NCBI GenBank assembly: GCA_041393395.1
Contig: JAWKKG010000002.1
Span: forward strand, 14,151 to 78,150
Length of the DNA stretch: 64,000 nucleotides
Source of the DNA: a bacterium
GTDB taxonomy: Bacteria; ARS69
Direction of reading: 5' to 3'
Shown: positions 5,323-48,138 of the stretch, piece by piece
How positions within the stretch are numbered: position 1 is the first letter of the stretch
Layout: each line of letters begins with the position of its first letter
Notes under the pieces: model-generated
Told to the model about the DNA's origin: nothing
The model's input: only the letters and a program-made list of their open reading frames with translations
Database searches by the model: none
Position numbers and translations under genes: made by a program

Positions 5323-5328
5323 GACAGC

Positions 5329-6381: not shown

Positions 6382-6382
6382 C

Positions 6383-6970
6383 ATGATTCGCATCAACCTT
6401 CTGCCGCAGGACGCGCGGAAGTCCCGCCGCGGAGGCGGCGGAGGCTTCACGCTCGACAAGACCAAGGTCGTACCGCTCGTGGTGCTCGCCCTGGTCCTGA
6501 CGGCCTGCACGTCGACCCTGATGATCCAGGGTGCCCGCGTCTCCTCGGCGGAGCGTGAGGTGGCGGCGGCGCGGGCGGAGACCGAGCAGTACAAGAAGAC
6601 CATCGCCCTGATCGACGACATGGTCCGCAAGGAGCAGGAGCTGAACCGTCGGCTCGCGCTCGTGGACACGCTCGACAAGGACCGTTTCAAGACGGTCCGG
6701 GTGATGGACGAAGTGGCGCGGCGGGTGCCGCGGTACATGTGGCTGACCTCGCTCAAGAACGTCACGCCGGATCGGGTCGCGATCGACGGCTACGCGTTCT
6801 CGAACCTGGTCGTCTCCGATCTGATGTCGAGTCTGGAGAAGTCGGAGATGTTCCGGGAAGTCGAATTGAGCGGGGTGAGGCGGAAGGTCGTCGACGGCCA
6901 GAACGCGGTGAATTTCACCGTGACCTCGGGCGTCGATGTCGCCCGCCTCGAACGTGAGAGCGAGTCCTAG
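6383..6970 (+). CDS. pilN: Type IV pilus inner-membrane protein PilN
   Basis: Canonical 'MIRINLLPQ' N-terminus, single TM helix, coiled-coil periplasmic region. Starts 2 nt after the pilM stop. Confidence 0.85.
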   Translation: MIRINLLPQDARKSRRGGGGGFTLDKTKVVPLVVLALVLTACTSTLMIQGARVSSAEREVAAARAETEQYKKTIALIDDMVRKEQELNRRLALVDTLDKDRFKTVRVMDEVARRVPRYMWLTSLKNVTPDRVAIDGYAFSNLVVSDLMSSLEKSEMFREVELSGVRRKVVDGQNAVNFTVTSGVDVARLERESES

Positions 6971-6980
6971 GGAGGCCGGC

Positions 6981-7652
6981 ATGGGCAACATCGATTTCAA
7001 GGATCAGAACGTCCAGATCGCCGGTCTCGTGATCTTCGTGTCCCTGGTGATCGTGTACGTCTTCTTCTTCAGCGCCATGCTCCCGTTCGGGTTCAAGGCG
7101 CGCGGGGAGGAGATCGCGAGGCTGGAGACCGAGTACGAGAAGCTCTCGGCGGATCTCATGAAGGCGAAGCAGACGGCGAGCCGTCTGCCGCAGGTCAAGG
7201 CCGAGTACGAGGCCCTGGCCACGAAGTGGGAAGAGGCGAAGACGCTCCTCCCGACCGAGAAGGAGATGGCGGAACTGCTGTCCCAGGTCACGGTCGCGGG
7301 TCAGCGCTCGGGAGTCGACTTCCTGAACTTCGAGCCGAAGGCCCCGGTCGCGCGGGAGATCTATCTCGAGAACCCGATCGACGTGAAGGTGCAGGGTGGT
7401 TACCACGAGATCGGCCTGTTCCTGGGCCGCATGTCGAACCTCCCGCGCATCGTGAACGTCAAGTCGATCGATCTCAAGAACGTCACGAATCCCGACGACC
7501 CGGAGGCCCCGGATCTCGTGGAGGCGAGCATGAGCCTCGCCGCGTACGTGCTGTCCGACGCCGCTTCGCAGGCGCAGGGTGCCCCGGCCACTCCGGCCGG
7601 CAAGATTCCCCCCGCGCCCGCTCAGCCGAAGGGAGGTCGCGGTGGTCACTAA
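6981..7652 (+). CDS. pilO: Type IV pilus inner-membrane protein PilO
   Basis: Internal ATG of ORF 6936..7652. N-terminal TM (IAGLVIFVSLVIVYVFFF), coiled coil, periplasmic domain. Position between pilN and pilP. Confidence 0.7.
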   Translation: MGNIDFKDQNVQIAGLVIFVSLVIVYVFFFSAMLPFGFKARGEEIARLETEYEKLSADLMKAKQTASRLPQVKAEYEALATKWEEAKTLLPTEKEMAELLSQVTVAGQRSGVDFLNFEPKAPVAREIYLENPIDVKVQGGYHEIGLFLGRMSNLPRIVNVKSIDLKNVTNPDDPEAPDLVEASMSLAAYVLSDAASQAQGAPATPAGKIPPAPAQPKGGRGGH

Positions 7653-8250
7653 GGTGCGAGTTGTCGTCGCCCTGTCGGGCCTCGTGATGATCCTGGCCGG
7701 TTGTGGCGACGGCGGGGTCACCGGGTTCACCGGCGGTACGAGCTCCAAGGATAAGCAGCCGATCCCGCCCGCGGTCAACGCGGCGGCGGGAGTCGGGGTG
7801 GCGCACGCGGCGACGCCGGACGCCAGCCCGTCGATGGAAGGTCCGGCCGCCACGTCGAAGGCGCCCGAGACGATGGACGTGGACGACGTGGACTCGGAGT
7901 CCCCGATCCGTTCCCAGTCCATGCAGTACCGGGCCGACCGGATGCGGGATCCCTTCCTGTCGCTGATCGGCGACTCCGAGGGCTTCGGCGAACTGGTCGA
8001 TCTCTCGGTCGTGACCCTCGTGGGTGTGGTGCTGGGGGAGAAGCCGTTCGCGGTCGTCGAGAACGCCGAGGGCATCAGCTACGTTCTGCACGAGGGGGAT
8101 CGCGTGAAGAACGGGCGGGTGGTCGAGATCCGCGAAGAGGGGATCAAGTGCTCGCAAACGGTGCTGGGCTACACGACGACGGTCCAACTCAAGCTCGAGG
8201 AGCAGAAGAAGGTCGGGACGACCGGAAAGGGCGGAAAGAATGTCGGTTGA
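7642..8250 (+). CDS. pilP: Type IV pilus lipoprotein PilP
   Basis: GTG start gives a lipoprotein signal 'VVTKVRVVVALSGLVMILAGC' (lipobox LAGC). C-terminal PilP-like beta domain. Overlaps the pilO end by 11 nt and the pilQ start by 11 nt. Start codon choice is uncertain. Confidence 0.6.
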   Translation: MVTKVRVVVALSGLVMILAGCGDGGVTGFTGGTSSKDKQPIPPAVNAAAGVGVAHAATPDASPSMEGPAATSKAPETMDVDDVDSESPIRSQSMQYRADRMRDPFLSLIGDSEGFGELVDLSVVTLVGVVLGEKPFAVVENAEGISYVLHEGDRVKNGRVVEIREEGIKCSQTVLGYTTTVQLKLEEQKKVGTTGKGGKNVG

Positions 8251-9520
8251 TCTGATTCCCCGGAAGGGGCTGGCGCTTGGGCTGGCGATGTTCGCGCTCA
8301 CGGCGCTCGCCGGGTCGGCGCAGGCCGCCCGGCCGGAAATCGATACGGCCGGCATGGCCGCCATCGACATCGACGTGCAGGGCGCGACGGTGTCCTCGGT
8401 CCTCCGGATGTTCTCGGAGTTCTCGGGGCGCAACATCATCGCGGGGCCGGAAGTCAGCGGCAAGATCACGGCGAAGCTGGACGGCGTGCCGTGGCTCGTG
8501 GCGCTCGACAACGTGCTCCGCGCGCACGGTTTCGCGTGGGAAGAGACGGCGGACGGCGACATCATCCGCGTGACGACGTCCGAGAAGCTCTCGAACGAGC
8601 GTCTGAACGAGGAAGTCGTCGAGCGACGTCGTGAGGAGTTCCTCCCGCTCGAGACCGAGATCATCAAGGTCTCCTACGCCTCGGCGGAGGAGATGCAGGA
8701 ACCGCTCGAGATCCTGCTGTCCACGCGTGGCAAGATCGAGACCGACGAGCGCACGAACGCGCTCATCGTCACGGACATCGGCACTCGTCTCGGCCGCGTG
8801 CGCGAGATGGCGAAGATCCTCGACTTCAAGACGGCTCAGGTCGAGATCAACGCCGAGCTCGTGGACGTCGACACCCGCGCGATCCGGGACCTCGGCATCT
8901 CGTGGGACGTCACCGGCCTGAACCAGGGCGACGCCAGCGGCAGCGGCAGCGTGGACGCTACCGTGCCGGGAGTCGGCGTGGTGAACTTCAACCTCACCGG
9001 CACCGACGCGGACTTCACGTCGCAGCTCCAGGCGCTGGCCCGGGACGACAAGGCGAAGATCATCTCGAACCCGCGGATCACGACGGCCGACAACAAGGAA
9101 GCGAAGATCATCGTCGGCAAGAAGATCCCGCTGGTGGTCTCGGACGAGTCCGGCAACGCGGTGACCGAGCTCACGACCGTGGGCATCAAGCTCACCGTGG
9201 TGCCGCACATCAACCAGGACGACCGGATCACGCTCGACATGCACCCCGAGGTCTCCGACCTCTCGGCGCAGGCGACGGTCCAGGGCGGCATCATCATCGT
9301 GACGTCGGAAGCGCAGACGCGCGTGATCGTCGAGAACGGCCAGACGGCGGTGATCGGCGGTCTGATCCGCACGAACGAGTCGTCCGTGGATCAGGGCGTT
9401 CCGTACCTGAAGGACATCCCGCTGCTGGGCTACCTCTTCAAGAGCAACAACAAGGTCAAGGAAGAGCGTGAGCTGATGATCTTCGTGACGCCGAAGATCA
9501 TCCGGCCCGAGGACGTCTAG
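8240..9520 (+). CDS. pilQ: Type IV pilus secretin PilQ (short form, 426 aa)
   Basis: Signal peptide, N0/secretin domains, conserved C-terminal secretin motif 'VPYLKDIPLLGYLFKSNNKVKEERELMIFVTPKII'. No N-terminal AMIN repeats are visible. Confidence 0.9.
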   Translation: MSVDLIPRKGLALGLAMFALTALAGSAQAARPEIDTAGMAAIDIDVQGATVSSVLRMFSEFSGRNIIAGPEVSGKITAKLDGVPWLVALDNVLRAHGFAWEETADGDIIRVTTSEKLSNERLNEEVVERRREEFLPLETEIIKVSYASAEEMQEPLEILLSTRGKIETDERTNALIVTDIGTRLGRVREMAKILDFKTAQVEINAELVDVDTRAIRDLGISWDVTGLNQGDASGSGSVDATVPGVGVVNFNLTGTDADFTSQLQALARDDKAKIISNPRITTADNKEAKIIVGKKIPLVVSDESGNAVTELTTVGIKLTVVPHINQDDRITLDMHPEVSDLSAQATVQGGIIIVTSEAQTRVIVENGQTAVIGGLIRTNESSVDQGVPYLKDIPLLGYLFKSNNKVKEERELMIFVTPKIIRPEDV

Positions 9521-28651: not shown

Positions 28652-28837
28652 ATGGCTCTTCCCAAGTATCGAATCGGGCGGACGCGCCGCCTCAAGCGGC
28701 GTTCCCACCACGCGCTCGGCGTACCGGCGAGAAACCAGTGCCCCGAGTGCGGCCAGACGAAGCAGCCGCATCGCGTCTGCATGCACTGCGGCTACTACGC
28801 CGGCCGCAAGGTCATGGCGGGCAAGGACGACGCGTAG
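28652..28837 (+). CDS. rpmF: 50S ribosomal protein L32
   Basis: 'MALPKYRIGRTRRLKRRSHHAL...CPECGQTKQPHRVC..CGYY'. Confidence 0.95.
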   Translation: MALPKYRIGRTRRLKRRSHHALGVPARNQCPECGQTKQPHRVCMHCGYYAGRKVMAGKDDA

Positions 28838-28882
28838 TCACCCTTCACGGGCGGACGCCCTACGGGGCGCGGGGTTGACGGG

Positions 28883-29905
28883 ATGAGGATCGTGGTCGAC
28901 GCGATGGGCGGAGACAACGCGCCCGCCGTCGAGGTGGAAGGCGCGCTCGAGGCCCTGCGTCACGCGGAGTCGGATCTCGCCATTTGCCTCGTGGGAGACG
29001 AGACGTCGATCCGGCGGGAGCTCGATCGCCTGGGCTTCCGCGGGGACTCCCGTCTCACGGTGGAGCACGCCCCCGAGAAGATCGACATGGGGGGCGAGGA
29101 TCCGGCCCGGCAGGTGCGCAAGAAGAAGGGCGCCTCGATCACCGTGGCCACGCGACTCCTGCGGGAGGGGCAGGCCGACGGTCTCGTGAGCGCCGGCAAC
29201 ACGGGCGCCGTGGTCGCCTCCGCGCTGCTCACGCTCGGCCGCATCCGCGGTGTGCGTCGCCCGGGAATCGCCACCGTGCTGCCGAGTCCGAGCGGCGGCG
29301 CCGTCATCCTGGACGTCGGCGCGAATTCCGATTGCTCCCCGCGCAACCTGCTCCAGTTCGCGACCATGGGAGCGATCTACGCCCGCAAGGTGCTCGGCCG
29401 GACCGAGCCGCGGGTCGGCCTCCTCAACATCGGGGAGGAGAAGTCGAAGGGGAACAAGGTCGTGCAGGAAGCCCACAAGCTCCTCGAGGAGAGTTCGCTC
29501 CGTTTCGTCGGCAACGTCGAGGGGCGGGACATCTTCCACGGCGCCACCGACGTGGTCGTGTGCGACGGCTTCGTCGGCAACGTCGTGCTGAAGTTCTCGG
29601 AGAGCGTGATCTCGCTGATCACGAATCTCGCGAAGGAGGAGATCGGGCACGATCTGCGGGGCAAGCTGGGTGCGCTGATGCTGCGTCCCTCGTTCCGCAA
29701 CATCTCGCGCGTCCTGAGCTACGACGAGTACGGCGGCGCGCCCCTTCTCGGTATCGACGGAATCGTCATCATCGCGCACGGCAAGTCCACGGTGAAGGCG
29801 ATCCGCAATGCGATCCTCGTGGCGGTGCGCTTCGCCCGGGAGCGTATCAACGACACGATTCGCGATGAACTGCAGGAGCAGAGCCTTGGCCAAGTACCTG
29901 CCTGA
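28883..29905 (+). CDS. plsX: Phosphate acyltransferase PlsX
   Basis: 'MRIVVDAMGGDNAP', 'GNTGAVVASALL'. Confidence 0.95.
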   Translation: MRIVVDAMGGDNAPAVEVEGALEALRHAESDLAICLVGDETSIRRELDRLGFRGDSRLTVEHAPEKIDMGGEDPARQVRKKKGASITVATRLLREGQADGLVSAGNTGAVVASALLTLGRIRGVRRPGIATVLPSPSGGAVILDVGANSDCSPRNLLQFATMGAIYARKVLGRTEPRVGLLNIGEEKSKGNKVVQEAHKLLEESSLRFVGNVEGRDIFHGATDVVVCDGFVGNVVLKFSESVISLITNLAKEEIGHDLRGKLGALMLRPSFRNISRVLSYDEYGGAPLLGIDGIVIIAHGKSTVKAIRNAILVAVRFARERINDTIRDELQEQSLGQVPA

Positions 29906-30884
29906 TCCCGCGGTCGGCATCGTCGGGATCGGATCCGACGCGCCGTCGCGCCTCCTGACGAACCAGGACCTCGAGAAGATCGTCGACACTTCGGACGAGT
30001 GGATCGTGGAGCGGACGGGGATCCGCAAGCGGCACATCGCGGACGAGAACACGACGACGCGCACGCTGTCGACGAACGCCGCGCGCCGCGCCCTGGACGA
30101 CGCCGGCGTCGACGCGGCCGACGTGGACCTCGTGATCGTGGGCACGGCCACGCCGGACATGTACTTCCCGTCCACGGCGTGCCTCGTGCAGAGCGACCTG
30201 GGGGCGCACAAAGCGGCCGCGTTCGATCTCTCCGCGGCGTGCTCCGGCTTCATCTACGGGTTGAACGTGGCGGCCGGGATGATCCGCAACGGGACGCACG
30301 AGACCGCGCTGGTGATCGGGGCGGAGACGCTCACGAAGATCGTGGACTTCGAGGACCGCGGAACCTGCGTCCTCTTCGGCGACGGGGCCGGCGCCGCGGT
30401 CGTGCGTCGCGTGGAGAAGGGAACCGGCATCCTGGCGACCCGCATCCAGTCGGACGGCGATCAGGGCGAGATGCTGAAGCTTCCCGCGGGCGGATCGCGC
30501 CAGCCGGCGACGCACGAGACCGTCGATCAGCGCCTGCACTTCATCAAGATGAACGGCAACAACGTCTTCAAGTCCGCGGTGCGGGCGATGTCCGACGCGC
30601 TGCTGGCGGGCCTCGAGGATGCCGGGCTGACCGCGGACGACGTGGACCTGTTCATTCCGCACCAGGCGAACATCCGGATCATCGAGGGTGTGGCGAAGCG
30701 CGCGGCGATCCCGATGGATCGCGTGTTCGTGAACGTGGAGGAGTGGGGCAACACGTCCGCGGCGTCGATCCCGATCGCGATCGACGAGGCGCGACAGTCC
30801 GGGCGCCTGAAGGCCGGCCAGACGGCGGCGTTCGTCGCGTTCGGCGCGGGCTTCACCTGGGGCTCGGCCGTGGTGAGGTTCTAG
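29865..30884 (+). CDS. fabH: 3-oxoacyl-ACP synthase III
   Basis: Catalytic Cys in 'DLSAACSGFIYGL'. 'HQANIRII' His. 'AFGAGFTWGSAVV' Asn region. Start codon uncertain: ATG 29865 overlaps plsX by 40 nt, and a later TTG is also possible. Confidence 0.85.
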   Translation: MNCRSRALAKYLPDPAVGIVGIGSDAPSRLLTNQDLEKIVDTSDEWIVERTGIRKRHIADENTTTRTLSTNAARRALDDAGVDAADVDLVIVGTATPDMYFPSTACLVQSDLGAHKAAAFDLSAACSGFIYGLNVAAGMIRNGTHETALVIGAETLTKIVDFEDRGTCVLFGDGAGAAVVRRVEKGTGILATRIQSDGDQGEMLKLPAGGSRQPATHETVDQRLHFIKMNGNNVFKSAVRAMSDALLAGLEDAGLTADDVDLFIPHQANIRIIEGVAKRAAIPMDRVFVNVEEWGNTSAASIPIAIDEARQSGRLKAGQTAAFVAFGAGFTWGSAVVRF

Positions 30885-30893
30885 GAGGTTCGC

Positions 30894-31829
30894 ATGGCGA
30901 AGACCGCCTTTCTGTTCCCGGGCCAGGGAAGTCAGTACGTCGGAATGGGGAAGAGCCTCGCCGAGGCGTACCCCGAGACGCGCGCGTGGTGGAACCGCGC
31001 CGACGAGATCCTCGGGTTCGACTTTACGCACCTGTGCTTCGAGGGCCCCGAGGAAGAGCTGAAGGAGACCCGCAATACGCAGCCGGCGCTGTTCGTGAAG
31101 AGCTGGGCGGCATGGAGTGCGGTGCGCGACTCGCTCTCGGCCGACTGGATGGCCGGACACAGCCTGGGTGAGTACTCGGCCCTGGCCGCGGCCGGCGCGC
31201 TGTCGTTCGACGACGGTCTCCGTGCCGTCCGCAAGCGCGGCGAGCTCATGTGGGATTCCGGCGTCTCACGGCCGGGAACGATGGCGGCGATCCTCGGGAT
31301 GACTCCCGCCGACGTCGAGGCGCTGTGCGAGGAGGCGAGCGCCGCCGGGCTCGTGCAGCCGGCGAACCTGAACTGTCCGGGCCAGATCGTGGTGTCGGGC
31401 GAGGTCGCCGGGGTCGAGCGCGCGGTGGAGCTCGCGCCCGAGCGCGGGGCCAAGAAGGCGGTGCGGCTCGCCGTGTCCGGCGCGTTCCACTCCGCGTTGA
31501 TGGAGGATGCGCAGCGCGATCTCGCCGCGTTCCTGGCCGAGCTCGACATCCGCGACGCCCAGGTGCCCGTGGTCTCGAACGTCCACGCCCGCCCGGTCAC
31601 GGCGGCGGCCGAGATCCGGCAGAACCTCGTGGACCAGATGACCTCGCCCGTCCGCTGGGAGGAGTCGATGCGCTTTCTCCTGGACTCGGGCGTGACCGAG
31701 TTCTACGAGATCGGGGCGGGAAAGGTCCTGCGGGGTCTCCTGCGCTCGATCGAGCGTTCGGCGAAGTGCACGAACGTGGGGCCGGCGGAGTCGATCCCGG
31801 AAGCTCTGGCGCAGGGAGGGATCGCGTGA
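30894..31829 (+). CDS. fabD: Malonyl CoA-ACP transacylase
   Basis: '[14 protein letters not shown]', active-site '[10 protein letters not shown]'. Confidence 0.95.
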
Positions 31830-32554
31830 GCGTCGCGCTCGTCACGGGAGCTGCCCGCAACATCGGGCGGGCGATCGCGGTGCGCCTCGCGCGCGACGGC
31901 TTCGACGTCGCGTGCACGGGTCGCAGCGAGGAATCGCTCGCCGAGACGGTCCACGACGTGCGGGCCCAGGGCCGCCAGGCGCTCGCGATCGCGGCCGACG
32001 CATCCGATCCCGAGGCCCCGAAGGCCGCCGTGGAGCGCGCGGTCAAGGAGCTCGGTTCCCTCGACGTGCTCGTGAACAACGCCGGCATCACGAAAGACGG
32101 TCTGGTGGCGCGCATGAGCGAGGAGGACTTCGAGCGCGTGCTCGACGTCAACCTGAAGGGCTGCTTCCGCTTCTGCAAGGCGGCGGCCCGGCCCATGATG
32201 AAGCAGCGGTCCGGCCGCATCGTGAACATCACGTCGATCATCGGCGTGCGCGGGAACGAAGGGCAGTCGAACTACGCGGCCTCGAAGGCGGGGATGATCG
32301 GGTTCACCAAGAGTCTGGCCCGCGAGCTCGCGGCGCGGAGCATCCTGGTCAACGCGGTCGCGCCCGGATACATCGTCACGTCGATGACCGAGTCGCTGTC
32401 GGACGACGTGAAGGAGGCAATGTTCCGGTCGATTCCGCTCGGACGGTTCGGTTCGCCCGAGGACGTGGCGGGGGTCGTCTCGTTCCTCGCGTCGGAGGAC
32501 GCCGCGTACGTCACCGGTCAAACACTGATCGTCGACGGCGGCATGGTCACCTGA
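31826..32554 (+). CDS. fabG: 3-oxoacyl-ACP reductase
   Basis: '[15 protein letters not shown]', 'NNAGI', 'YAASKAG' SDR catalytic tetrad. GTGA overlap with fabD. Confidence 0.9.
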
Positions 32555-32631
32555 GGCAGAACAGCATCGAAGGTGGAGCCGCTCGGACGAGGGGCTCGCA
32601 GGAAGCAACAACCACCGGAGGAGAGGGAAGA

Positions 32632-32880
32632 ATGGATTCTCCGAATTACGAGAAGGTTCGGGACATCATCGTGGATCAGCTGGACGTGGAGGCCGAGCAG
32701 GTCACGGCGGACGCCTCGTTCATCGAGGATCTCGGCGCGGACTCGCTCGACACGGTCGAGCTCGTGATGGCGCTCGAGGAGAACTTCGACATCGAGATCC
32801 CGGACGAGGACGCGGAGAAGATCAAGACCGTCCGCGACGCCGTGAGCTACATCGACAAGAACGTGAGCGCCGCGAACTAG
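32632..32880 (+). CDS. acpP: Acyl carrier protein
   Basis: 82 aa with the '[17 protein letters not shown]' phosphopantetheine-attachment Ser. Confidence 0.95.
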
Positions 32881-32937
32881 TTCCGGCGCCATCCGAGCGG
32901 TCGCCGGCCTCGGCCGGCGGAAGCGATTGGGAGCGAC

Positions 32938-34188
32938 ATGAGCGACAAGCGACGGGTGGTCGTCACCGGAGTCGGGGCGATCACTCCCATCGGCAACACG
33001 GCGCCGGAGTTCTGGCAGGCCGCGAGCACGGGTTCGTGCGGCGCGGGGCCGATCACCCGGTTCGACCCGACGGATCATTCCGTGAAGTTCGCCTGCGAGG
33101 TGAAGGACTTCGACGAGTCCCGGGCCGGCGACCGGAAAGAAGCCCGCAAGATGGATCGCTTCACTCAGTTCGCGATGGTCGCCGCCCTGGAGGCGGCGGA
33201 GGACGCGGGCATCGCTCCCGGCGACGGCATCGACGCGAACCGCTTCGGCGTGCTGATCGGATCGGGAATCGGGGGCATCCAGACCCTCGAGGACCAGAAG
33301 GAAGTCCTCATGGAGAAGGGACCGGGCCGGGTGAGCCCGTTCTTCGTTCCCATGATGATCGTGAACATGGCCACCGGTCTCGTGGCGATCCGTCTCGGCG
33401 CGAAGGGCCCGAGCAACGCCACCGTGACCGCGTGCGCCTCCGGAGCGAACGCGATCGGCGACGCATTCCGCGTCATCTCGTACGGCGACGCCGACGTGAT
33501 GATCGCCGGCGGCGCCGAGGCTCCGATCACCCAGATCGCCGTGGGCGGCTTCGCCAACATGAAGGCGCTGTCGACCCGGAACGACGATCCGATGCACGCG
33601 AGCCGTCCGTTCGATGCGGACCGCGACGGCTTCGTGATCGGAGAGGGAGCGGGAATCGTGGTGCTCGAGGAGCTGGAGCACGCGAAGCGACGGGGAGCCC
33701 GCATCTACTGCGAGCTCGTGGGCTACGGCTACAGCACGGACGCCCATCACATGACCGCGCCCGCCCCCGGAGGAGAAGGTGCCGTCCGGTCGATGCAGGC
33801 CGCGATCCGCGACGCCGGGGTGTCCCCGGCCGACGTCACCTACCTGAACGCGCACGGGACCTCGACGCCGTTGAACGACAAGTACGAGACGGCCGCGATC
33901 AAGACCGTGTTCGGCGAGCACGCCACGCGACTCGCCGTCAGCTCCACGAAATCCATGACCGGGCATCTGCTCGGCGCAGCGGGGGGAATCGAGTTCGTGC
34001 TCCTCGCCTACGCGCATCGCGATGGGCGAGTCCCTCCGACCATCAACTACAAGACCAAAGACCCCGAGTGCGATCTCGACTATGTGCCGAACGAGGCACG
34101 CGACCTGAAAGTGAATGTCGCCCTGACGAACTCACTCGGCTTCGGCGGTCACAACGTGACGTTGGCGACCAGGAGTCATGAAGGATAA
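32938..34188 (+). CDS. fabF: 3-oxoacyl-ACP synthase II
   Basis: Active-site Cys '[16 protein letters not shown]'. His motifs '[10 protein letters not shown]', 'GHLLGAAGG'. Confidence 0.95.
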
Positions 34189-35923
34189 TCAGACGAACGC
34201 GATCCAGGGAGCGGTCTCGGTTCTCGAGAAGCTCTTCTTCGGAACGCGCAAAGGACCGTCGGGGGAGCGTTCCCGGCTGCTGCGGAAGCTCCAGAAGCGG
34301 ATCGGTGTCCGCTTCACCGACATCTCTCTGCTCGAACAGGCGTTGACCCACCGCTCGTACTCGCACGTCACCGCGCAGACGCGCAACGACTCGAACGAGC
34401 GCATGGAGTTCCTCGGGGACTCCGTGCTCGGGCTCTCCGTCAGCCAGTTCCTGTATCTGCAGTTCCCGGAGCGCTCGGAAGGAGCGCTCTCCAAGATGAA
34501 GTCGCTGCTCGTGAGCCGGAAGGTGCTCTCCACGATCGCGAAGGAGGTCGGACTCGGCGAGTTCGTGCTCCTGTCCGGCGAGGAGTCGGAGATGGGCGGT
34601 CGCGACCGCACGTCGATCCTCGCGGACTCGTTCGAGGGCGTGATCGGCGCGATCTATCTCGATCAGGGCTACCGGACCGCGAACCGGTTCATCCAGAAGT
34701 TCCTGCTCGCGAACATCCACGAGATCCTGAAGGACGACGATCACACGAACTTCAAGTCGCTGCTCCAGGAGTACGTCCAGTCCAAGCGGCTGTCGCATCC
34801 CGTCTACCGTGTCCGCAAGGAAGAGGGACCGGAGCACGAGAAGGAGTTCGCGATCGACGTCGTGGTCAAGGGCGAGGTCTGGGGCACCGGTCGCGGCAAG
34901 AGCAAGAAGGACGCGGAGCAGAACGCGGCCCGCGCGGCGCTCGAGAAGCGACAGGGCAAGGTTGCCGGACGTCGCGGCGGGAACGGCGGCAGCTCGCCTC
35001 CCGAGAACGGTGACGCCGGCGAGAGCGCTCCGACCCGCGGTCGCGGGCGCCGGCGCGGACGCGGCGAGGCCACCGAGGTGCAGGCCGAGGCGCGATCCCG
35101 TGGTGATCATGGAATCGTCGCGTCGCGAGAGAAGCTGCGCGAGGCTCGTCAGGCCGAGGAGGACAGTCGTCGGCGCGGGCGCGATCGTCGTCCTTCGCGG
35201 CGTGGTCGTGCGGAATCGGAGGCCGCGGACAGCGAGGCGCCGGTCGAGGCGATGGAGAACGGCGGTCGGGGACGCCGGGCGGAGGGCGACAGCGACTCGC
35301 GGCCGCGTTCCGAGCGTCGGCGTCGGCGACGGCGGCGCGGCGGGGGCGGCGGTGCCGACGACGTTTCGCCGGGTGAGACGATGACGGCGGGGACCGGAGC
35401 CGCCGCTTCGGTGGTCGCGGCCTCGGACGTCGATGCCGGAACCGAACGGGAGACCCCGGCGAGGGACGAGTTCGAATCGCGACCGGTCGTCGAGAGCGAA
35501 TCGCGGGCGGAGTTGCGCGAGTCCGAACGGGTCGAGGCGCTGGCGCGTCCGGCACCGGAACGGGAGCGCCGCGAGCCCGAGGCTTCGAGCGAGACGGAGC
35601 GCCCACGCCGGGTCGAGCCGGCGCGGTTGGAGACCGCGGAAGAAGTGGAGTCCGAGCCCGCGGCGGAATCCTCCGAGCCGGAAGGCTTCGTGCGGCGCCG
35701 TCGTACCCGGCGGGAGTCGCGCCCGACGCCGTCCGGGGGAGGCGGTGCGGAGCGTCCTCCCGTGTCGACTGCGGTCGAGCCTCTCGACCCGGCGTCGTCG
35801 TCTTCGGACGGGGACGAGGCGGAGGTCGGCTCGACCGCGTCGGTAGACGGTGGGACCGGCGAAGAGTCCGCCGGATTCACGCGACGCAAGCGACGTCAGG
35901 TGCGCGGACTCCGCCGCCGCTAG
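34178..35923 (+). CDS. rnc: Ribonuclease III with a ~330-aa Arg/Glu/Gly-rich low-complexity C-terminal extension
   Basis: RNase III signature '[12 protein letters not shown]' and a dsRBD ending near residue ~250, in the conserved position after fabF. The same frame then continues open for ~330 more codons with a GC3-rich coding pattern. Confidence 0.8.
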
Positions 35924-38193
35924 ACGTTCGTCCCGGCGGGCGGCGGCGTCGCGTTCCGGCGCCGTCGCCCGCGCAGCGTCCCCCCGAGCAGCAGCAGCAT
36001 CCCGGCCGCTGCGGCCGCGCCCAGCATCGCGTCGGCGAAGTCGGAAGCGTTCGCCCCCGCGTGCGCCGCGACCGGCGGCAATGCCTCGTCTCTGCCGCGC
36101 ACCACGAACGCGCCCCACAGGAACGGATCGTTCAGGTCGGAGCGTCCCGAGAGGATCATCGCGCCGCGCGCCCGGCGCAACGCCTCCGACGGACGATCGC
36201 CTGCCGCGAGACGCTCGTGCAGTGCGGCCATCAGCTTCCCGATCGCGCGATCCTCGACCTTCCACAGCGCGCCGATCACCGAGCCCGCGCCGGCGTCGAG
36301 GAATGCGGACGAGAGAACGCCCACCGACGTGCGCCCCGCGACGTCCGAGAGTCCGGTCTCGCAGCCGGAGAGCACCACGATGCGTGCCGGGACATCGATG
36401 CGGCGGATCTCTGCCGGCTCGAGTCGACCGTCGCCGTCCTCGGCGGGAGCGAGAAGTACGGCGGGGGACCGGGGATCCGTGTGCGCGGCGAGGTGCAGGA
36501 TCGCGGGAGGGGGGCGATCGCGAACCCGCGCCTCCGTCGCGTCGGCGCCCAGCCACACCTCGACCTCGGAACCCGTGCGCGCGATCGCGTCCGCCTCGTC
36601 ACGCGCGCCGGGCAGCGGAACGAGCGGGGACGTCGGGCCGAGCACCGGGTCCGCCAGGACGCGGACGGCGCGGGTCGTGTTCGCGTCCGAATCCGGGGGC
36701 GGCCCCGAGACCGTCGCGTCCACGAGCGACCGGACGATGCCGAGGGGGCCGGCCCCGGTGGGAAGCACGGCGAACGGCAGGGCCTGGAGGGGACCGTCCG
36801 GCTCGAGCAGCATGCGGCCGTGCGACTGTTCCGCGTCGGCGGGAAACAAGCGCCCGACGAGGACCCGCCCGACGTCGTCCCGCTCGGTGGCGCGCGACGG
36901 GTCGGCGAGGAGGCCGCGGAACAGCAGGATCCACTCGCGCAGCTCGTCGGCCGCGCCGCAGTCGCGGGCGCGGTGGAGCGGGGCGGAGGATCCCGGCCAC
37001 TCCGCGAACGCGAGCACGCGCTCGCTGCCCCAGAACCAAGCGATCGCGAGGTCGTCTCCCTCCCGGGTGATTGCTCCGTGGGGATCCGCCCCGCGCACCC
37101 GGCGCACCCACTCGCGCGCCTCGTCGAACCGGGCCGGCTCCACGTCGAAGGCAGCGCCGTCCGTCGACGCCGGAAACCAGAGGTCGAGCGCCGTCTCGAC
37201 CCATGAGCGCGCGACCCGACACCGTGCGTCCGTTTCCGCGACGCCGCTCGCCTCCTCGATCCACGCGCGCGCCTGCGCGAGACACACGCCGATCCGGCGG
37301 GCGGCTTCCAAGCGATCGCCTCCGGCGACGGCATCGAGCGCGGCGCGCTGTTCCACGTCGGCGCGATCCCGCGCATCCCGCGCGAGGGTCCGGGCCCGCG
37401 TCGTCGCGTCGTGCGCGTCTTGCGGTCGTCGCGCCTTGGTGCAGGCTTCCGCGAGCGCGAGTCGGGCGCGACGCTCGATCGCGAGCGCCGTGTCCGCGCG
37501 CGCGCCGTCGGCGACGCGAGCGAGCGCGGCCGCGGCCTCGCGCGGGCGCCCGCGGTCGAGGTCGAGGAGGCCGCGCACGAATCCGATCTCCAGCTCCTCC
37601 CGGGGTGACGGCTTCGCGCGTTCGGCGACGTCGAGTGCCCGCTCCGCCGCGTCGAGGTGATCGGTGAGCCGGCGGGCGTCGGCCACGATGCGCCATGCGC
37701 GCGCCTCGGTCGCGCCGTCATCCGCCGCGCGCGCGCGTTCCGCGGCCCGCAGCGCGATCGCCTCGGCCGCTTCCCAGCGACCTTCCCGCAATCGGTGCTG
37801 CGCCTGGTTCGTGAGGACGAACCCGGCCGTGTCGTCCGGCACGTCCGTCGTCAGCGCGCCGGTCGCCATCTCGAGGAGCAGCGCGGCCTCGGCGTGATTG
37901 CCGGCCCGCGAAGCTTCCGCCGCCGCGTTGGACAGATGCAGTGCACGATCGCCGGGCTCGTCGGTGGCCTCCGCCGCGCGCCGGAACAGTCGCGTCGCGT
38001 CGCCGTGCTGGCCCGCGCGCGAAGCGGCAAGTGCGCGCGCGGCCCACGAACTCGCGTCGTCGCGCAACGTGTCGGCGGGGGCATCGCTCGCGTCGACGCG
38101 CTGCGCGAGGGCGGCCGCCGGACCGAGGATTCCGGGGCCCGGCCCGAGCGTGAGCGCGAGAAGAAGGAGAATCAGGGTGTGACGGCCGACCAC
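35920..38193 (-). CDS. Secreted TPR-like repeat + CHAT (caspase-like) domain protein with C-terminal hydrophobic segment and RRRR tail (757 aa)
   Basis: GTG start gives the signal peptide 'VVGRHTLILLLLALTLGPGPGILGPAAALAQ'. N-terminal Ala/Arg-rich helical repeats (TPR-like). C-terminal CHAT with His/Cys dyad contexts 'AILHLAAHTDP' and 'IVVLSGCETG'. Ends '...[32 protein letters not shown]'. The upstream 361 codons of ORF 35920..39276 are the antisense of the anti-sigma/sigma genes and are rejected. Confidence 0.65.
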   Translation of the reverse strand: MVGRHTLILLLLALTLGPGPGILGPAAALAQRVDASDAPADTLRDDASSWAARALAASRAGQHGDATRLFRRAAEATDEPGDRALHLSNAAAEASRAGNHAEAALLLEMATGALTTDVPDDTAGFVLTNQAQHRLREGRWEAAEAIALRAAERARAADDGATEARAWRIVADARRLTDHLDAAERALDVAERAKPSPREELEIGFVRGLLDLDRGRPREAAAALARVADGARADTALAIERRARLALAEACTKARRPQDAHDATTRARTLARDARDRADVEQRAALDAVAGGDRLEAARRIGVCLAQARAWIEEASGVAETDARCRVARSWVETALDLWFPASTDGAAFDVEPARFDEAREWVRRVRGADPHGAITREGDDLAIAWFWGSERVLAFAEWPGSSAPLHRARDCGAADELREWILLFRGLLADPSRATERDDVGRVLVGRLFPADAEQSHGRMLLEPDGPLQALPFAVLPTGAGPLGIVRSLVDATVSGPPPDSDANTTRAVRVLADPVLGPTSPLVPLPGARDEADAIARTGSEVEVWLGADATEARVRDRPPPAILHLAAHTDPRSPAVLLAPAEDGDGRLEPAEIRRIDVPARIVVLSGCETGLSDVAGRTSVGVLSSAFLDAGAGSVIGALWKVEDRAIGKLMAALHERLAAGDRPSEALRRARGAMILSGRSDLNDPFLWGAFVVRGRDEALPPVAAHAGANASDFADAMLGAAAAAGMLLLLGGTLRGRRRRNATPPPAGTNV

Positions 38194-38972
38194 TCGAACC
38201 GGCCGGGCGCGGACGAGACTTCCGATCCGTCCTCGCGTCGGGCGCGCACGATCCAGTGCAACTCGTGCGCCCCCTCGCCGAAGCGCTGCGAGATCTCCGC
38301 GCCGGGCAACAGCCAAGATGCCTCCTCCGTGGGGCCTAGCTCCGCGACGGTCGTTCCCGCCACGTCGACCAGCACGACGTGATACGAACGGGCGCCGGCG
38401 ACCGGCCCCCACGCGAATCGTACGTCGCCTCGGAGGTTCTCGTCTTCCTTCGGGGTGATCCGCTCGATCTGTTGCGCGCTCGCCGACGCGTGGGGATTCG
38501 TGCGCAGCTCCGCGCCGCGCTCCGGAGTGGACTCGCGGAGCACGAGCGCCACGAGCAACGTCGCCGCGGCGGCGCCGAGGAGGGCCGGGGTGGGTGAGGC
38601 GAGGAGCTCGCGCATCCGCCGGAAGATCCCGGGATCCTGCGAGCGCGACGACGGGACGCCGGCCGCCCGCACCTCGCGCAGCAACTCGCTCGGCGGGGTC
38701 GCGGCGAGGTCCGGCACGTCCTCGAGCGCCGCGCGGAGCTCGCCGAAGGCGCGGGCGAGTGCGGGATCCTCGGTGAGGCGACGCCGAGCCCGCGCGGCGT
38801 CCTCTCCGGAGAGCGTGCCGTCCAGCAGGCCGAGCAGCTCCTCGTCCAGCTCGTCGAGCTCGGCCGGGGTGCCGTCGCCGGAGGAGCGGGTCGCATCGCT
38901 CCAGGCGGACAGCAGGAAGGCCGTCTCGGGAAAGTCGCGCTCGGGAGATCGATCGTCGGGTCGGGTCGTCAT
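38172..38972 (-). CDS. Membrane-anchored anti-sigma factor: N-terminal anti-sigma domain, 1 TM, periplasmic C-terminal domain
   Basis: 'ELDEELLGLLDGTLSGEDAARARRRLTEDPALARAFGELRAALED' RskA/ChrR-like anti-sigma N-domain lacking Cys. TM 'ALLGAAAATLLVALVL'. ~120-aa periplasmic domain. ATG overlaps the ECF sigma stop (ATGA). Confidence 0.6.
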   Translation of the reverse strand: MTTRPDDRSPERDFPETAFLLSAWSDATRSSGDGTPAELDELDEELLGLLDGTLSGEDAARARRRLTEDPALARAFGELRAALEDVPDLAATPPSELLREVRAAGVPSSRSQDPGIFRRMRELLASPTPALLGAAAATLLVALVLRESTPERGAELRTNPHASASAQQIERITPKEDENLRGDVRFAWGPVAGARSYHVVLVDVAGTTVAELGPTEEASWLLPGAEISQRFGEGAHELHWIVRARREDGSEVSSAPGRFEWSAVTP

Positions 38973-39721
38973 GGTTCCCTCTCGTCCGGATCGGACACGC
39001 CCGCGGCGGCATTTTGAAACAGGGCGGCCCGAAACGTCTCCGCCGCCTCGGAGAAGGCCCGTTCGTCCCAGTCGGCCGACTCGCGGGCGCGAGCGAGGGC
39101 GGCACACTTGCCGAGCGCCTTGCGGAGCCGGTACGCCGCGTCGTTCGTGTCGCGCGCGCCGATCGCCTCGGCGAGCTCGCGGAGTTTGAGGCCACCGGCG
39201 AAGCGCAGGGTGAGGATCTCGCGATCCGCGGGCTCGAGTGCCGCCAGTGCGTCGCGGGCGGCGTGCCGGCCGACACCCACGGCCCAGGTCTCCCGCCGCG
39301 TCGTGGCCGCGAGGTCCTCCTCGGCCCGGGCCTCGCCCTCCAGCCGCTCCCGCGACGTCGCCTCCACGCCCTTGCGCCGGTAGAGACGGAAGCGCTCCGT
39401 CTTCACGACCCGGAACAGGTAGGTGCGGAAATCGCAGCGGCCCTCGAACGCCCGGAGCCGCCGGAAGTCCTCCGAGCGGAGCCGCTCGAACACTCCGCGG
39501 AATACCTCCGCGGAGAACTCCTCGGGGTCCGGGTGACCCTGCGCGAACTTCAGCGCCAGGGACCAGACGAACTTGGAGTATTTCTCGACAAAGAGCTGCC
39601 AACCTTTTGCGGGATCGGTGGTTAGCATTCCTTGGATGTCGGAGAACTCGAGCCCGGACCGGGAGTCCTCGAGCCGCGCGAGTCGGTCCAGAAATTCCCG
39701 GACGGGGCGTTCCTGAGCCAT
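38969..39721 (-). CDS. ECF-type RNA polymerase sigma-70 family factor with C-terminal extension
   Basis: Region 2 'FVEKYSKFVWSLALKF...FRTYLFRVVKTERFRLYRRK'. Region 4 'LEPADREILTLRFAGGLKLRELAEAIGARDTNDAAYRLRKAL'. ~45-aa extra C-terminus. Confidence 0.75.
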   Translation of the reverse strand: MAQERPVREFLDRLARLEDSRSGLEFSDIQGMLTTDPAKGWQLFVEKYSKFVWSLALKFAQGHPDPEEFSAEVFRGVFERLRSEDFRRLRAFEGRCDFRTYLFRVVKTERFRLYRRKGVEATSRERLEGEARAEEDLAATTRRETWAVGVGRHAARDALAALEPADREILTLRFAGGLKLRELAEAIGARDTNDAAYRLRKALGKCAALARARESADWDERAFSEAAETFRAALFQNAAAGVSDPDEREP

Positions 39722-39901
39722 ACGCGGGCCTCCGGTCGATCGCCGCGGCGAGGGTATCATGCGATCCGGGTGCGGTCACCCGAGGAGCCGCCGCGGCGAT
39801 CCTCCCGCTTGCCCATCAAGTCGATGCCGGGAAACGTCGATCCTTTGTCAGGATTGGGCGGCTTTGCCGGGAGCCCGGGGCAGGCGAGGAGTGGGGGCGT
39901 G

Positions 39902-44922: not shown

Positions 44923-45136
44923 TCCGGCCCCGGCCCCGGGGCAATCTCCGGGAGGCCGGGCCCGCGGCGGCACGTCGCCGCGCCGCCGGGGTCACCGGGC
45001 GAAGACCCGGACCACCATCGGCGTCATCTTGACCGCCCCGGAACCGCTCGGTACCCTCCCGGGGCTTCTTTCCCGCATCCCGTCACGAGGCCCCATCGGG
45101 GCCGATTGCCCGTTCGGGCGCTCTGCAAGGGGGTAG

Positions 45137-46153
<1,017 letters not shown>

Positions 46154-47386
46154 ATGAGTCCGTCCCCGTCGACTCCGGCCGGCTCCAAGAAGCAGACGCT
46201 CGCGGACCTGCCCGACGTGCACGGCAAGCGCGTGCTCGTGCGCTGCGACCTGAACGTTCCGCTGAAGGACGGAAGGGTCGCGGACGACACGCGCATCGTG
46301 GCGAGCCTGCCCACGATCCGCCGCCTCGTGGAGGCGGGCGCCAAGGTCGTGCTGATGTCGCACCTCGGTCGTCCCAAGGGACAGGCGAAGCCCGAGCTGA
46401 GCCTGGCCCCGGTGGCCAAGGTGCTCGCGGCGGCGCTCGGGCGGCCGGTGCGGATGGCGCCGGACTGCGTCGGTTCCGCCGTGACGTCGCTCGTGGCGGG
46501 AATGAAGGACGGAGACATCGTGCTCCTCGAGAACCTCCGGTTCCACCCGGAGGAGGAGAAGAACGACCCCGGGTTCGCGCGGCGTCTCGCCGAGCTCGGG
46601 GATCTCTACGTGAGCGACGCGTTCGGCACGGTCCATCGCGCGCACGCGTCGACCGCGGGGATCCCGGCGCTGATCCGGCCCGCGGTTGCGGGGCTACTGC
46701 TCGAGAAGGAGCTGGAATACCTCGGCGGCGTCACGTTCAATCCGGCGCGGCCGTACGTCGCGATCCTCGGCGGCGCGAAGATCAGCGGCAAGATCGACGT
46801 GCTCGAGAACCTCTTCGGTCGCGTCGACACGATCCTGATCGGCGGCGCGATGGCGAACACGTTCTTCCGCGCGCAGGGCTTCGAGACCGGCAAGAGCCTG
46901 GTGGAGGAAGATCGGCTGGCTCTCGCGAAGGAGCTGCTCGCGCGCGCGAAGAAGGAGAACGTGGCGCTCGAGCTGCCGGTGGATTGCGTGGTCGCGACCG
47001 AGATGACGGAGACGGCGACCACGGAGACGTGCGCGGCCGACGCGATGCCGGCCGATCGCATGATGCTCGACGTCGGACCCCGGACGGTCGCGCGCTACCG
47101 CGAGATCATCGTCGCGGCGCGGACCGTGCTGTGGAACGGTCCGATGGGCGTGTTCGAGATGAAGCCGTTCGCGGCCGGCACGATCGGAGTCGCGAACGCG
47201 CTGGTGGAGGCGACGGGCAAGGGCGCCATCACCGTGGTCGGCGGGGGCGACTCCGCAGCCGCGATCGCTCAGGCGGGGCTGACCGAGAAGGTGAGTCACG
47301 TCTCCACGGGCGGCGGGGCGTCGCTCGAGTTCCTCGAAGGCAAGGTGCTGCCCGGCGTGGCCGCGCTGTCGGAGGCGAACGCGTGA
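46154..47386 (+). CDS. pgk: Phosphoglycerate kinase
   Basis: 'RVLVRCDLNVPL', 'HLGRPKG', C-terminal 'VSTGGGASLEFLEGKVLPG'. Confidence 0.95.
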   Translation: MSPSPSTPAGSKKQTLADLPDVHGKRVLVRCDLNVPLKDGRVADDTRIVASLPTIRRLVEAGAKVVLMSHLGRPKGQAKPELSLAPVAKVLAAALGRPVRMAPDCVGSAVTSLVAGMKDGDIVLLENLRFHPEEEKNDPGFARRLAELGDLYVSDAFGTVHRAHASTAGIPALIRPAVAGLLLEKELEYLGGVTFNPARPYVAILGGAKISGKIDVLENLFGRVDTILIGGAMANTFFRAQGFETGKSLVEEDRLALAKELLARAKKENVALELPVDCVVATEMTETATTETCAADAMPADRMMLDVGPRTVARYREIIVAARTVLWNGPMGVFEMKPFAAGTIGVANALVEATGKGAITVVGGGDSAAAIAQAGLTEKVSHVSTGGGASLEFLEGKVLPGVAALSEANA

Positions 47387-48138
47387 GGACTCCGCTCGTG
47401 TGCGGGAACTGGAAGATGTACAAGACGCCCTCCGAGGGGCGGACGCTGGCGCGTGAGATCTCGAACGGACTCCGGGGTGCCCCGGGGAAGGTCGAGGTGG
47501 CCGTGTGCCCGCCGTACCCCGCGATTCCGGCCGTGGCGGAGGCCCTGAAGGGCTCGCCGGTGGCCTGGGGCGCCCAGAACTGTGCCGCCGCACCCGAGGG
47601 GGCGTTCACGGGCGAGGTGGCCGTTCCCATGCTTGTTGACCTCGAATGCCGTTTCGTTATACTCGGCCATTCGGAACGTAGGCAGTTTTTCGGGGAAACC
47701 GATCCGGGCGTCCGCGAGAAGGCGGAAGCCGTTCTCGGGGCGGGACTTACGCCGATCGTGTGTGTCGGCGAGAGTCTCGAGCAGCGAGAAGCGGGGCGCA
47801 CGGAGGAGGTCGTCGATCGGCAGCTCCGCGAGGGGCTGGCCGGACTGCCGGGACCGGAGGTCGGGCGATCGGTGATCGCCTACGAGCCGATCTGGGCGAT
47901 CGGCACGGGGCGCACGGCGACCCCGGACATGGCGGAGGCGGTGCACCGGCGCATCCGGGTGACGCTCTCCGGGTTGTTCGGGGAATCGGTGGCGGTCGCG
48001 ACCCGGGTCCTGTACGGCGGCAGCGTGAAGCCGGACAATGCGCGCGAGCTGTTCGCGCAACCGAACATCGACGGGGGTCTGATCGGCGGAGCGTCCTTGT
48101 CCGCGGGCTCCTTTCTCGACATCGTGAGGGCGGCATGA
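47383..48138 (+). CDS. tpiA: Triosephosphate isomerase
   Basis: 'VCGNWKMYKT', 'ILGHSERR', 'AYEPIWAIGTG'. GTGA overlap with pgk. Confidence 0.95.
   Translation: MRTPLVCGNWKMYKTPSEGRTLAREISNGLRGAPGKVEVAVCPPYPAIPAVAEALKGSPVAWGAQNCAAAPEGAFTGEVAVPMLVDLECRFVILGHSERRQFFGETDPGVREKAEAVLGAGLTPIVCVGESLEQREAGRTEEVVDRQLREGLAGLPGPEVGRSVIAYEPIWAIGTGRTATPDMAEAVHRRIRVTLSGLFGESVAVATRVLYGGSVKPDNARELFAQPNIDGGLIGGASLSAGSFLDIVRAA

Follow-up and report, generated by a model that had tools for sequence, protein, structure and literature searches.

The usual picture of bacterial RNase III is that of a compact enzyme with two domains, working on its own. In a Gemmatimonadota bacterium, the gene encoding this enzyme (rnc) stays open for 324 codons behind the dsRBD (the domain that binds double-stranded RNA), which raises the question of whether this extension is a real part of the protein and what it might do there. 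The gene was studied within a stretch of 64,000 nucleotides with a GC content of 70% (hereafter the window, whose first letter is position 1). A scan of genome contigs recovered seven loci, and residue conservation was determined from an alignment of 34 sequences. The features of the gene and of its 3' border are collected in Table 1.

Table 1. Position of rnc, of its encoded segments and of the adjoining convergent gene in the window
Feature	Position	Strand	Evidence or remark
rnc, RNase III with C-terminal tail (581 aa, ATG start, TAG stop)	34178..35923	+	Domain matches; start position common to aligned homologues
Clade-specific N-terminal extension, aa 1-37	34178..34288	+	Conserved consensus in 34 sequences
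RNase III catalytic domain, aa 48-179	34319..34714	+	Ribonucleas_3_3, PF14622, E = 3.5e-39
dsRNA-binding domain (dsrm), aa 193-257	34754..34948	+	Pfam PF00035, E = 2.3e-19
Disordered (predicted), highly charged tail, aa 258-581, 324 codons	34949..35920	+	AlphaFold2 (AF2), composition, conservation in close relatives
Island 1, 'RG-HGI-ASRE-LR--R', aa 308-324	35099..35149	+	N-terminal part of the sole predicted tail helix
Sole predicted tail helix, aa 313-335	35114..35182	+	AF2, pLDDT 76-88
Arg8-Gly5 run, aa 380-392	35315..35353	+	GCG/CGG trinucleotide-like repeat
Island 2, internal 'GF-RRRR', aa 503-512	35684..35713	+	Resembles the C-terminal motif
Island 3, extreme C-terminal 'GF-RRKRR--RG-RRR', aa 566-581	35873..35920	+	Alignment, close relatives
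Overlapping stops CTAG	35920..35923	both	rnc TAG 35921-35923 (+); CHAT TAG 35920-35922 (-)
CHAT ORF, convergent with rnc	35920..39276	-	CHAT domain detected

The RNase III core and its genomic context

Judged by its sequence, the gene product is a class 1 bacterial RNase III that is catalytically intact. The RNase III equivalog TIGR02191 (NCBIfam) covers aa 38-257 with a score of 259.4 bits (cutoff 166.25). The catalytic domain carries the 12-aa RNase III signature and the second acidic motif DSFEG, and matches the solved RNase III structures 1O0W, 2A11 and 7R97. It is followed by a single dsRBD, for which AF2 predicts the alpha-beta-beta-beta-alpha fold with high pLDDT. The preliminary description of this DNA, which had proposed an RNase III with a long tail and had placed signature and dsRBD in the first ~250 residues, was accurate on these points: the ORF was found exactly where it had been located, and the strings quoted from it (the catalytic signature, the Arg/Gly run and the terminal 15-aa peptide) are all present. 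Residues E74, E77, D81, D150 and E153, the equivalents of the catalytic carboxylates E38/E41/D45 and D114/E117 of the E. coli enzyme, are invariant among the 34 aligned sequences. The same holds for L19, G22, R24, G26, R31, R33 and L35 of the N-terminal extension, which is modeled by AF2 as two helices with low confidence.

Like the class 1 enzymes of E. coli, T. maritima, M. tuberculosis and A. aeolicus, the protein combines one catalytic domain with one dsRBD and has all catalytic acidic residues. Unlike them, it has a conserved 37-aa extension at the N-terminus and, at the C-terminus, 324 disordered residues that include three conserved motifs, and it is far longer (581 aa, while solved or typical enzymes have 220-252 aa). 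This length is a variant architecture and gives no ground for excluding the protein from the RNase III family.

The gene is the last of the plsX-fab cluster, following acpP-fabF. Its first 11 nt are shared with the 3' end of fabF, whose stop is at 34186-34188, and upstream of the rnc start in loci L003-L006 there are only 6-17 open codons. At its other end, rnc meets the convergent CHAT gene, which had been described as stopping at the end of the ORF; the two stops in fact overlap in the palindrome CTAG, leaving no intergenic space, and the same overlap is found in L001 and L009. Rfam and terminator scans gave no match within or after the tail. An antisense ORF of 837 aa (34043..36556) was considered as a gene and rejected, because it lies on the strand opposite the RNase III core and has the variable sites at its codon position 1.

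Composition and predicted disorder of the tail

The tail is rich in Arg, Glu, Gly, Ala, Ser and Pro. It contains 69 R+K and 65 D+E (net charge +4), and basic and acidic blocks alternate along it, ranging from +7 to -5 per 15 aa. [quoted passage not shown] The charge blockiness of the window protein has a z of 4.8, with the observed value reached in 0 of 300 shuffles, and in homologues z varies from -0.4 to 4.8. Because blockiness is so inconsistently conserved, a condensate-forming role is not a prediction for the whole clade.

AF2 models the core with confidence and assigns pLDDT <50 to aa 267-309 and to nearly all of aa 339-581, so that the intrinsic disorder proposed earlier is also what the model predicts for almost all of aa 267-581, apart from one helix. 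The Arg8-Gly5 run sits inside a 17-aa string (aa 379-395), and the GCG run coding for this Arg/Gly stretch was the only match of a tandem-repeat scan. In most homologues a basic block 'RRRRG-RG' aligns at the same place. The tail gave no match in Pfam, NCBIfam or PDB and no detectable similarity to RNase E. No comparable charged disordered region was found in other genes of the window, so the tail does not reflect a general habit of the proteome.

Distribution of tailed RNase III

All complete relatives with a core identity of at least 73%, which are Gemmatimonadota MAGs, are tailed (total length 430-693 aa, tails 170-440 aa). A search with the core only, which is unbiased with respect to the tail, gave the same result, with a tail in every complete relative at this level of identity. 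The comparison of orthologues that the preliminary description had suggested, with proteins ending at ~250 aa as the outcome unfavorable to the tail, thus came out in favor of it. Below 50% core identity, most relatives have a length of 230-270 aa. A net positive charge (+10 to +25) is found in most Gemmatimonadota tails, and repeat-like expansions are present in homologous tails.

In two neighboring RNase III clades the tails differ from these and carry C-terminal motifs of their own. The Candidatus Eisenbacteria-type enzymes and those of a third clade resemble the Gemmatimonadota enzymes in having the same core (51-59% identity), long charged tails and a conserved C-terminal peptide, and the tailed RNase III of a neighboring lineage (L010) occupies the same position in the fab operon. 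However, the Eisenbacteria-type tails are strongly net acidic with a basic tip and end in '[FYW]GRR..RR', while those of the third clade are RGG-rich, 75-250 aa long, and end in 'PWAASRLHTEP'.

Conserved islands within the tail

Three conserved islands are set in sequence that otherwise evolves fast and is otherwise unalignable. Island 1 has five residues that are invariant among the 34 sequences (H311, G312, S316, R317 and R324) and a sixth, A315, that is nearly so; the predicted helix whose N-terminal part it forms is amphipathic and Arg-bearing, and the island is restricted to the Gemmatimonadota clade. In the case of Island 2, many relatives carry 'GF[GV]RRRR[ST]RR' at a similar position. 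Island 3 is present in 39 of the 47 tailed close relatives, with F567 invariant and R569, R570 and R573 conserved to at least 90% (alignment of 34 sequences). Its peptide is preserved despite synonymous swaps among the Arg codons CGA, CGC, CGG, CGT, AGG and AGA, and it is kept whatever gene lies downstream.

A six-frame motif scan of the window and the loci found two of the motifs nowhere but in rnc. A 46-column profile of Island 1, which is without statistical power, gave no match at E<=10 among 5.8 billion sequences. When the tail alone (aa 297-581) was used in a word-indexed homology search, there were 0 matches, and even the 88%-identical protein P0001 was missed, evidently because low-complexity proteins swamped the candidates.

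Translation, selection and alternative explanations

One objection to the tail is that untranslated sequence is read through after a lost stop, a frameshift or an assembly error. Two arguments previously raised against such an artefact do not hold. The tail has a GC content of 0.80/0.67/0.78 at codon positions 1/2/3, and the core one of 0.62/0.37/0.91; the strong GC3 bias reported for the tail was therefore rejected as coding evidence, since its GC3 is below its GC1. Chance openness had been put at only a few percent, and our composition model gives a probability of ~0.5% for 324 stop-free codons, but open frames are common in this GC-rich DNA (in the 64,000 nucleotides, 16% of the six-frame segments of 324 codons have no stop) and the tail is also crossed by an open antisense frame, which makes the argument weak. 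The tail stands beyond chance because of its conservation, not because of its openness. The same architecture is encoded in more than 40 independent assemblies. Relative to the nearest relative, indels are of 3, 6, 9 and 12 nt, all multiples of three that keep the frame. Nucleotide differences in the tail from the closest relative number 26/28/87 at codon positions 1/2/3 and thus concentrate at position 3 of the rnc frame, which corresponds to position 1 in the antisense ORF. The invariant residues and the conserved extreme C-terminus point the same way. The artefact is already refuted by these comparative data and we give it practically no credence; on the same data, the tail is genuine and translated, and results neither from a lost stop nor from a frameshift. 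Its dN/dS, 0.22 for the comparison with the closest relative, is 0.49 for a further close pair and reaches 0.5-0.7 in more distant pairs. The tail is therefore under purifying selection that is weak overall (dN/dS 0.2-0.7), and the greater part of it might serve as spacer, with only the motifs functional.

A translated tail might nevertheless be mostly neutral, a drifting low-complexity appendage whose Arg-rich end raises non-specific affinity for nucleic acids or solubility, with no role in partner binding or scaffolding. Its fast divergence (67-80% nucleotide identity in the distal tail vs 97-100% in the core) would suit such drift, as would the upper dN/dS values of the more distant pairs, the repeat-like expansions in homologues, and the variable length and charge patterning. 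Generic charge, however, does not explain the invariant non-basic residues H311, G312, S316 and F567, nor the aromatic residue that always stands before the Arg cluster; the tail is also kept in every complete member of the clade, a motif is duplicated internally, and the helix of Island 1 is predicted with confidence. We consider a mostly neutral tail unlikely, though it retains an appreciable chance. Another explanation places the action of the tail within the enzyme itself: acidic blocks would mimic nucleic acid and the helix would dock on the catalytic domain or the dsRBD, so that RNase III is gated or auto-inhibited until a substrate, a partner or a modification displaces the tail. The near-neutral polyampholyte character of the window tail, with long acidic stretches at aa 393-500 and 528-565, is consistent with this, and the pLDDT of the lone helix, unusually high for a free segment, would fit packing on the core. 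The strongly net-negative tails of the Eisenbacteria type, with their basic tip, lean in the same direction. Most Gemmatimonadota tails, in contrast, are net positive and unlike a nucleic-acid mimic, and we regard internal gating as improbable.

Proposed function of the tail

The reading that we somewhat favor, by analogy with the RNase E CTD, is that the tail serves as a module which binds RNA multivalently and docks partners, a lineage-specific (Gemmatimonadota) extension on an intact RNase III. Its Arg-rich segments would add multivalent, low-specificity RNA contacts to that of the dsRBD, and the conserved motifs would dock a partner, which may be a protein or a structured RNA. RNase III would thereby be concentrated on its substrates (for example, pre-rRNA and structured mRNAs), or would be drawn into an assembly of several RNA-processing enzymes, which may be a condensate. 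Most of the tail evolves rapidly, by substitution and in-frame expansion or contraction of repeats, with its high charge content and the three motifs retained.

The non-catalytic C-terminal half of RNase E is the degradosome scaffold (PMC4435900). In Caulobacter it drives BR-bodies, and the Arg-rich blocks of this domain are required for foci (10.1101/272286). The RNase III tail shares with it a long disordered region on an endoribonuclease, Arg-rich segments, short conserved microdomains in fast-evolving sequence and, in the window protein, alternating charged blocks, the blockiness of which is not uniformly conserved in the homologues studied here. It differs in that there is no sequence homology, the catalytic domain is that of a dsRNA-specific RNase III, and no membrane-targeting helix is evident. 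Of the likeness to RNase E and phase-separating proteins that had been suggested before, the Arg-rich segments and the conserved motifs are borne out, whereas consistent charge patterning is not, and the likeness is one of analogy only.

A parallel for Island 3 is found in cyanobacterial RNase E, whose conserved C-terminal 'RRRRRRSSA' (C4 nonapeptide) binds PNPase (PMC3964918). In both cases, a conserved peptide with an Arg run stands at the very end of a variable disordered tail. However, the RNase III peptide contains no RRRRRRSSA; it has an invariant Phe before RRKRR, followed by RG-RRR, and belongs to another enzyme in another phylum. By this analogy, we hypothesize that the C-terminal peptide might bind PNPase. 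A bolder version, which we think improbable, is that in Gemmatimonadota (and with other motifs in Eisenbacteria-like bacteria) a degradosome-like assembly, or an RNA condensate, would have RNase III and not RNase E as its scaffold, with the C-terminal Phe/Arg peptide and the 'HGI-ASRE-LR' helix docking PNPase, a DEAD-box helicase or a short RNase E/G. A 2011 survey, a single one covering genomes other than these, reported a Gemmatimonadetes RNase E/G homologue of 520 aa with no predicted scaffold (PMC3071783).

The disordered-tail architecture is known from RNase E scaffolds and is new for bacterial RNase III as far as the literature was searched, where no description of a tailed bacterial RNase III was found. 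To our knowledge, the role of organizing hub in RNA processing and decay is known only for assemblies of RNase E, RNase Y and RNase J. A disordered tail that spans the phylum and carries conserved docking-type motifs suggests that the view of RNase III as a lone enzyme fails in some lineages, and that in tailed lineages a dsRNA-specific nuclease may be such a hub. The three motifs, each of 10-17 residues, offer short and concrete targets in cultivable Gemmatimonas species, and the three differently tailed RNase III clades form a natural set for studying how disordered scaffolds arise on ribonucleases.

Domain organization of the RNase III gene

The rnc gene was recovered as the open reading frame claimed in the preliminary description, and the protein strings quoted there were found in its product, including, within the tail, an Arg8-Gly5 run and the terminal [15 protein letters not shown]. 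The RNase III domains are confined, as claimed, to the first ~250 residues or so: Pfam and NCBIfam matches end at aa 257 (the NCBIfam bacterial RNase III equivalog covers aa 38-257 with 259 bits against a cutoff of 166), and no Pfam, NCBIfam or PDB match was obtained for the tail. Alignment of 34 clade members revealed a near-invariant core, which includes the catalytic residues E74, E77, D81, D150 and E153. The N-terminal extension ('[22 protein letters not shown]') is also conserved in the clade, with seven invariant residues.

Features of the rnc gene and its product, and the neighbouring sigma factor gene
Feature	Product (aa)	Window (nt)	Strand	Description
rnc ORF		34178..35923	+	ATG start, 581 codons and TAG
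N-terminal extension		34178-34288		37 aa, basic
Ribonucleas_3_3	48-179		+	Pfam
dsRBD	193-257		+	Pfam
Tail	258-581	34949-35920	+	324 residues
Island 1	308-324			R-G-x-H-G-I/V-x-A-S-R-E-x-L-R-x-x-R
Island 2	503-512			internal G-F-V/G-R-R-R-R; many but not all members
Island 3	566-581			extreme C-terminus; G-F-x-R-R-K/R-K/R-R-x-x-R-G-x-R-R/K-R
Sigma factor gene		38972-39760	-	ECF-type, Pfam-checked

The strong GC3 bias attributed to the tail was not borne out, since its GC content at codon positions 1/2/3 is 0.80/0.67/0.78, with no excess at the third position (the core values are 0.62/0.37/0.91). Openness of the frame had also been taken as evidence for the tail. A composition model does give a chance of only ~0.5% for 324 stop-free codons, but 16% of all 324-codon six-frame windows are open in this 70%-GC sequence and one antisense frame is likewise open across the tail, so openness alone proves little.

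Comparative evidence for the tail

A database search returned 652 relatives, and the closest among the matches listed are named at source as Gemmatimonadetes or Gemmatimonadota RNase III (taxonomic labels were taken from a handful of source names). Orthologue lengths were compared as the preliminary description had proposed. Among the matches listed, complete relatives with core identity of at least 73% do not end at ~250 aa; all are 430-693 aa long, with tails of 170-440 aa, and the few exceptions are contig-end fragments or diverge at the 3' end. To keep tail composition from biasing the result, the core alone was then searched against 1.84 billion cluster representatives. Tails were present in 9/11 listed matches with core identity of at least 70% (the other two are truncated fragments), and 22 of the 31 listed at 51-70% had tails 60 aa or longer. 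Below 51%, fewer than 30 residues follow the dsRBD in most of those listed (89/108).

The nearest relative among the matches listed, L001 (a MAG contig, GCA_020431545.1), has a core identity of 100% and an overall identity of 88%. Tail indels between the two loci measure only 12, 9, 6 and 3 nt, and tail substitutions by codon position 1/2/3 number 26/28/87. The tail dN/dS is 0.22, with a core dN of 0; in a second close pair of homologous loci, L005 and L006, the tail dN/dS is 0.49. The alignment with L001 clearly shows selection on the reading frame through the tail, and the comparative data establish that the tail is translated and under purifying selection. An artefactual tail is refuted on the same comparative grounds: a lost stop or frameshift is ruled out by indels in multiples of three, by the substitutions at codon position 3 and by the tailed relatives. 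An 837-aa antisense ORF spanning the whole of rnc (34043-36556, minus strand) was rejected as a gene; variable rnc sites fall on its codon position 1, which marks it as a GC-rich shadow ORF.

Across the 34 clade members the tail is mostly unalignable except for three islands. Its distal part (35354-35872) is a divergence hot spot with 67-80% nucleotide identity to L001, whereas the rnc core reaches 97-100% and the adjacent CHAT gene 88-97%. The tail dS is ~5-fold above that of the core (0.40 vs 0.07 between the window and L001, 0.51 vs 0.11 between L005 and L006), which would mean either that codon usage in the core is very strongly constrained (GC3 0.91) or that mutation or recombination is raised in the repeat-prone DNA of the tail.

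Disorder, charge and conserved islands

AlphaFold2, run with the clade alignment as input, predicted the core with confidence, whereas pLDDT stays below 50 across almost the whole of aa 267-581, in agreement with the intrinsic disorder proposed earlier. The one predicted tail helix (aa 313-335, block pLDDT 76-88) coincides with Island 1, where H311, G312, S316, R317 and R324 are invariant in the 34 members. Conserved positions recur there every 3-4 residues (I313, S316/R317, L320/R321, R324) and would thus share one helix face. Island 3 has an invariant F567, and conservation at R569, R570 and R573 is 90% or higher; the motif occurs in 39/47 tailed close relatives among the matches listed. Because Island 3 persists although all six Arg codons are freely interchanged within it, and with or without an abutting convergent CHAT gene, the constraint acts on the protein.

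The tail contains 69 R+K and 65 D+E, arranged in blocks of net +7 to -5 per 15 residues; this charge segregation exceeds all 300 shuffles (z = 4.8). The z values of homologues lie between -0.4 and 4.8; blockiness is therefore not conserved uniformly among them. No comparable charged disordered segment was found in any other gene of the window.

Two neighbouring RNase III clades, at 51-59% core identity, carry long tails with different signatures (P0045-P0120 and P0126-P0153 among the relatives; locus L010). In one of them (Candidatus Eisenbacteria according to some sources) the tails are net acidic, and a C-terminal '[FYW]-G-R-R...R-R' is found in 51/93 tailed sequences of this identity range among the matches listed; the other has RGG-rich tails, with C-terminal 'P-W-A-A-S-R-L-H-T-E-P' in 24/93. 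An aromatic residue followed by an Arg cluster is a theme common to the motifs of these clades and of Gemmatimonadota.

Possible function of the tail

The non-catalytic half of RNase E is organized likewise: an endoribonuclease carries a long, variable disordered region with Arg-rich segments and a few short conserved microdomains. Caulobacter RNase E has charged blocks of this size and needs its Arg-rich ones to form foci (10.1101/272286). By analogy, we propose that the rnc tail would provide multivalent RNA contacts and dock partners, thereby enriching RNase III at its substrates or within an assembly. A 2011 survey (PMC3071783) gives the RNase E/G homologue of Gemmatimonadetes as 520 aa long and without a predicted scaffold region, which leaves room for a scaffold function on RNase III in Gemmatimonadota.

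The tail might instead be a largely neutral appendage that contributes no more than a generic affinity for nucleic acid, as its fast evolution and variable length would suggest; however, invariant non-basic residues and universal retention of the tail in complete clade members argue against this. The acidic blocks and the confident AlphaFold2 helix also suggest that it may act as an intramolecular regulator.

In databases the tailed proteins carry the plain annotation 'ribonuclease III'. Structures of bacterial RNase III in the PDB are all 220-252 aa, and the full-text literature searched described neither these motifs nor a long disordered tail on any bacterial RNase III. The enzyme family and the scaffold-tail principle are both known; their combination, with defined motifs and conserved phylum-wide, seems not to have been described before.

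Genomic context

The rnc gene, which shares 11 nt with fabF, closes a plsX-fabH-fabD-fabG-acpP-fabF cluster. The same order, after ndk-yceD-rpmF, is found in L009 (a 4.7-Mb Gemmatimonadota-type genome) and in L010, from a different tailed clade. As described earlier, the convergent CHAT ORF stops at the end of rnc: both stop codons lie within the palindrome CTAG (35920-35923), leaving no intergenic space, and L001 and L009 have the same overlap. No Rfam family or terminator was detected in or after the rnc tail. Downstream genes vary between loci, so rnc has no conserved downstream partner gene.

In the window (35920-39760, minus strand) and in L009, a cassette of the CHAT gene, an ORF without Pfam match and the sigma factor gene separates rnc from a PAS/GAF sensor gene. 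At a minimum, L001 and L004 share the ORF that converges on the 3' end of rnc. L005 lacks one there, and its PAS/GAF gene is immediately downstream of rnc, which suggests an insertion/deletion polymorphism. The CHAT ORF (1118 aa) probably starts much later, at ~38180, where a signal-peptide-like stretch begins. The gene layout further suggests a pilM/N/O/P/Q-like cluster (~5300-9500), the plsX-to-fabF operon (28800-34200) and gap-pgk (45100-47400), with a Pfam check covering acpP, the PAS/GAF gene and the sigma factor; this layout is largely syntenic with L009.
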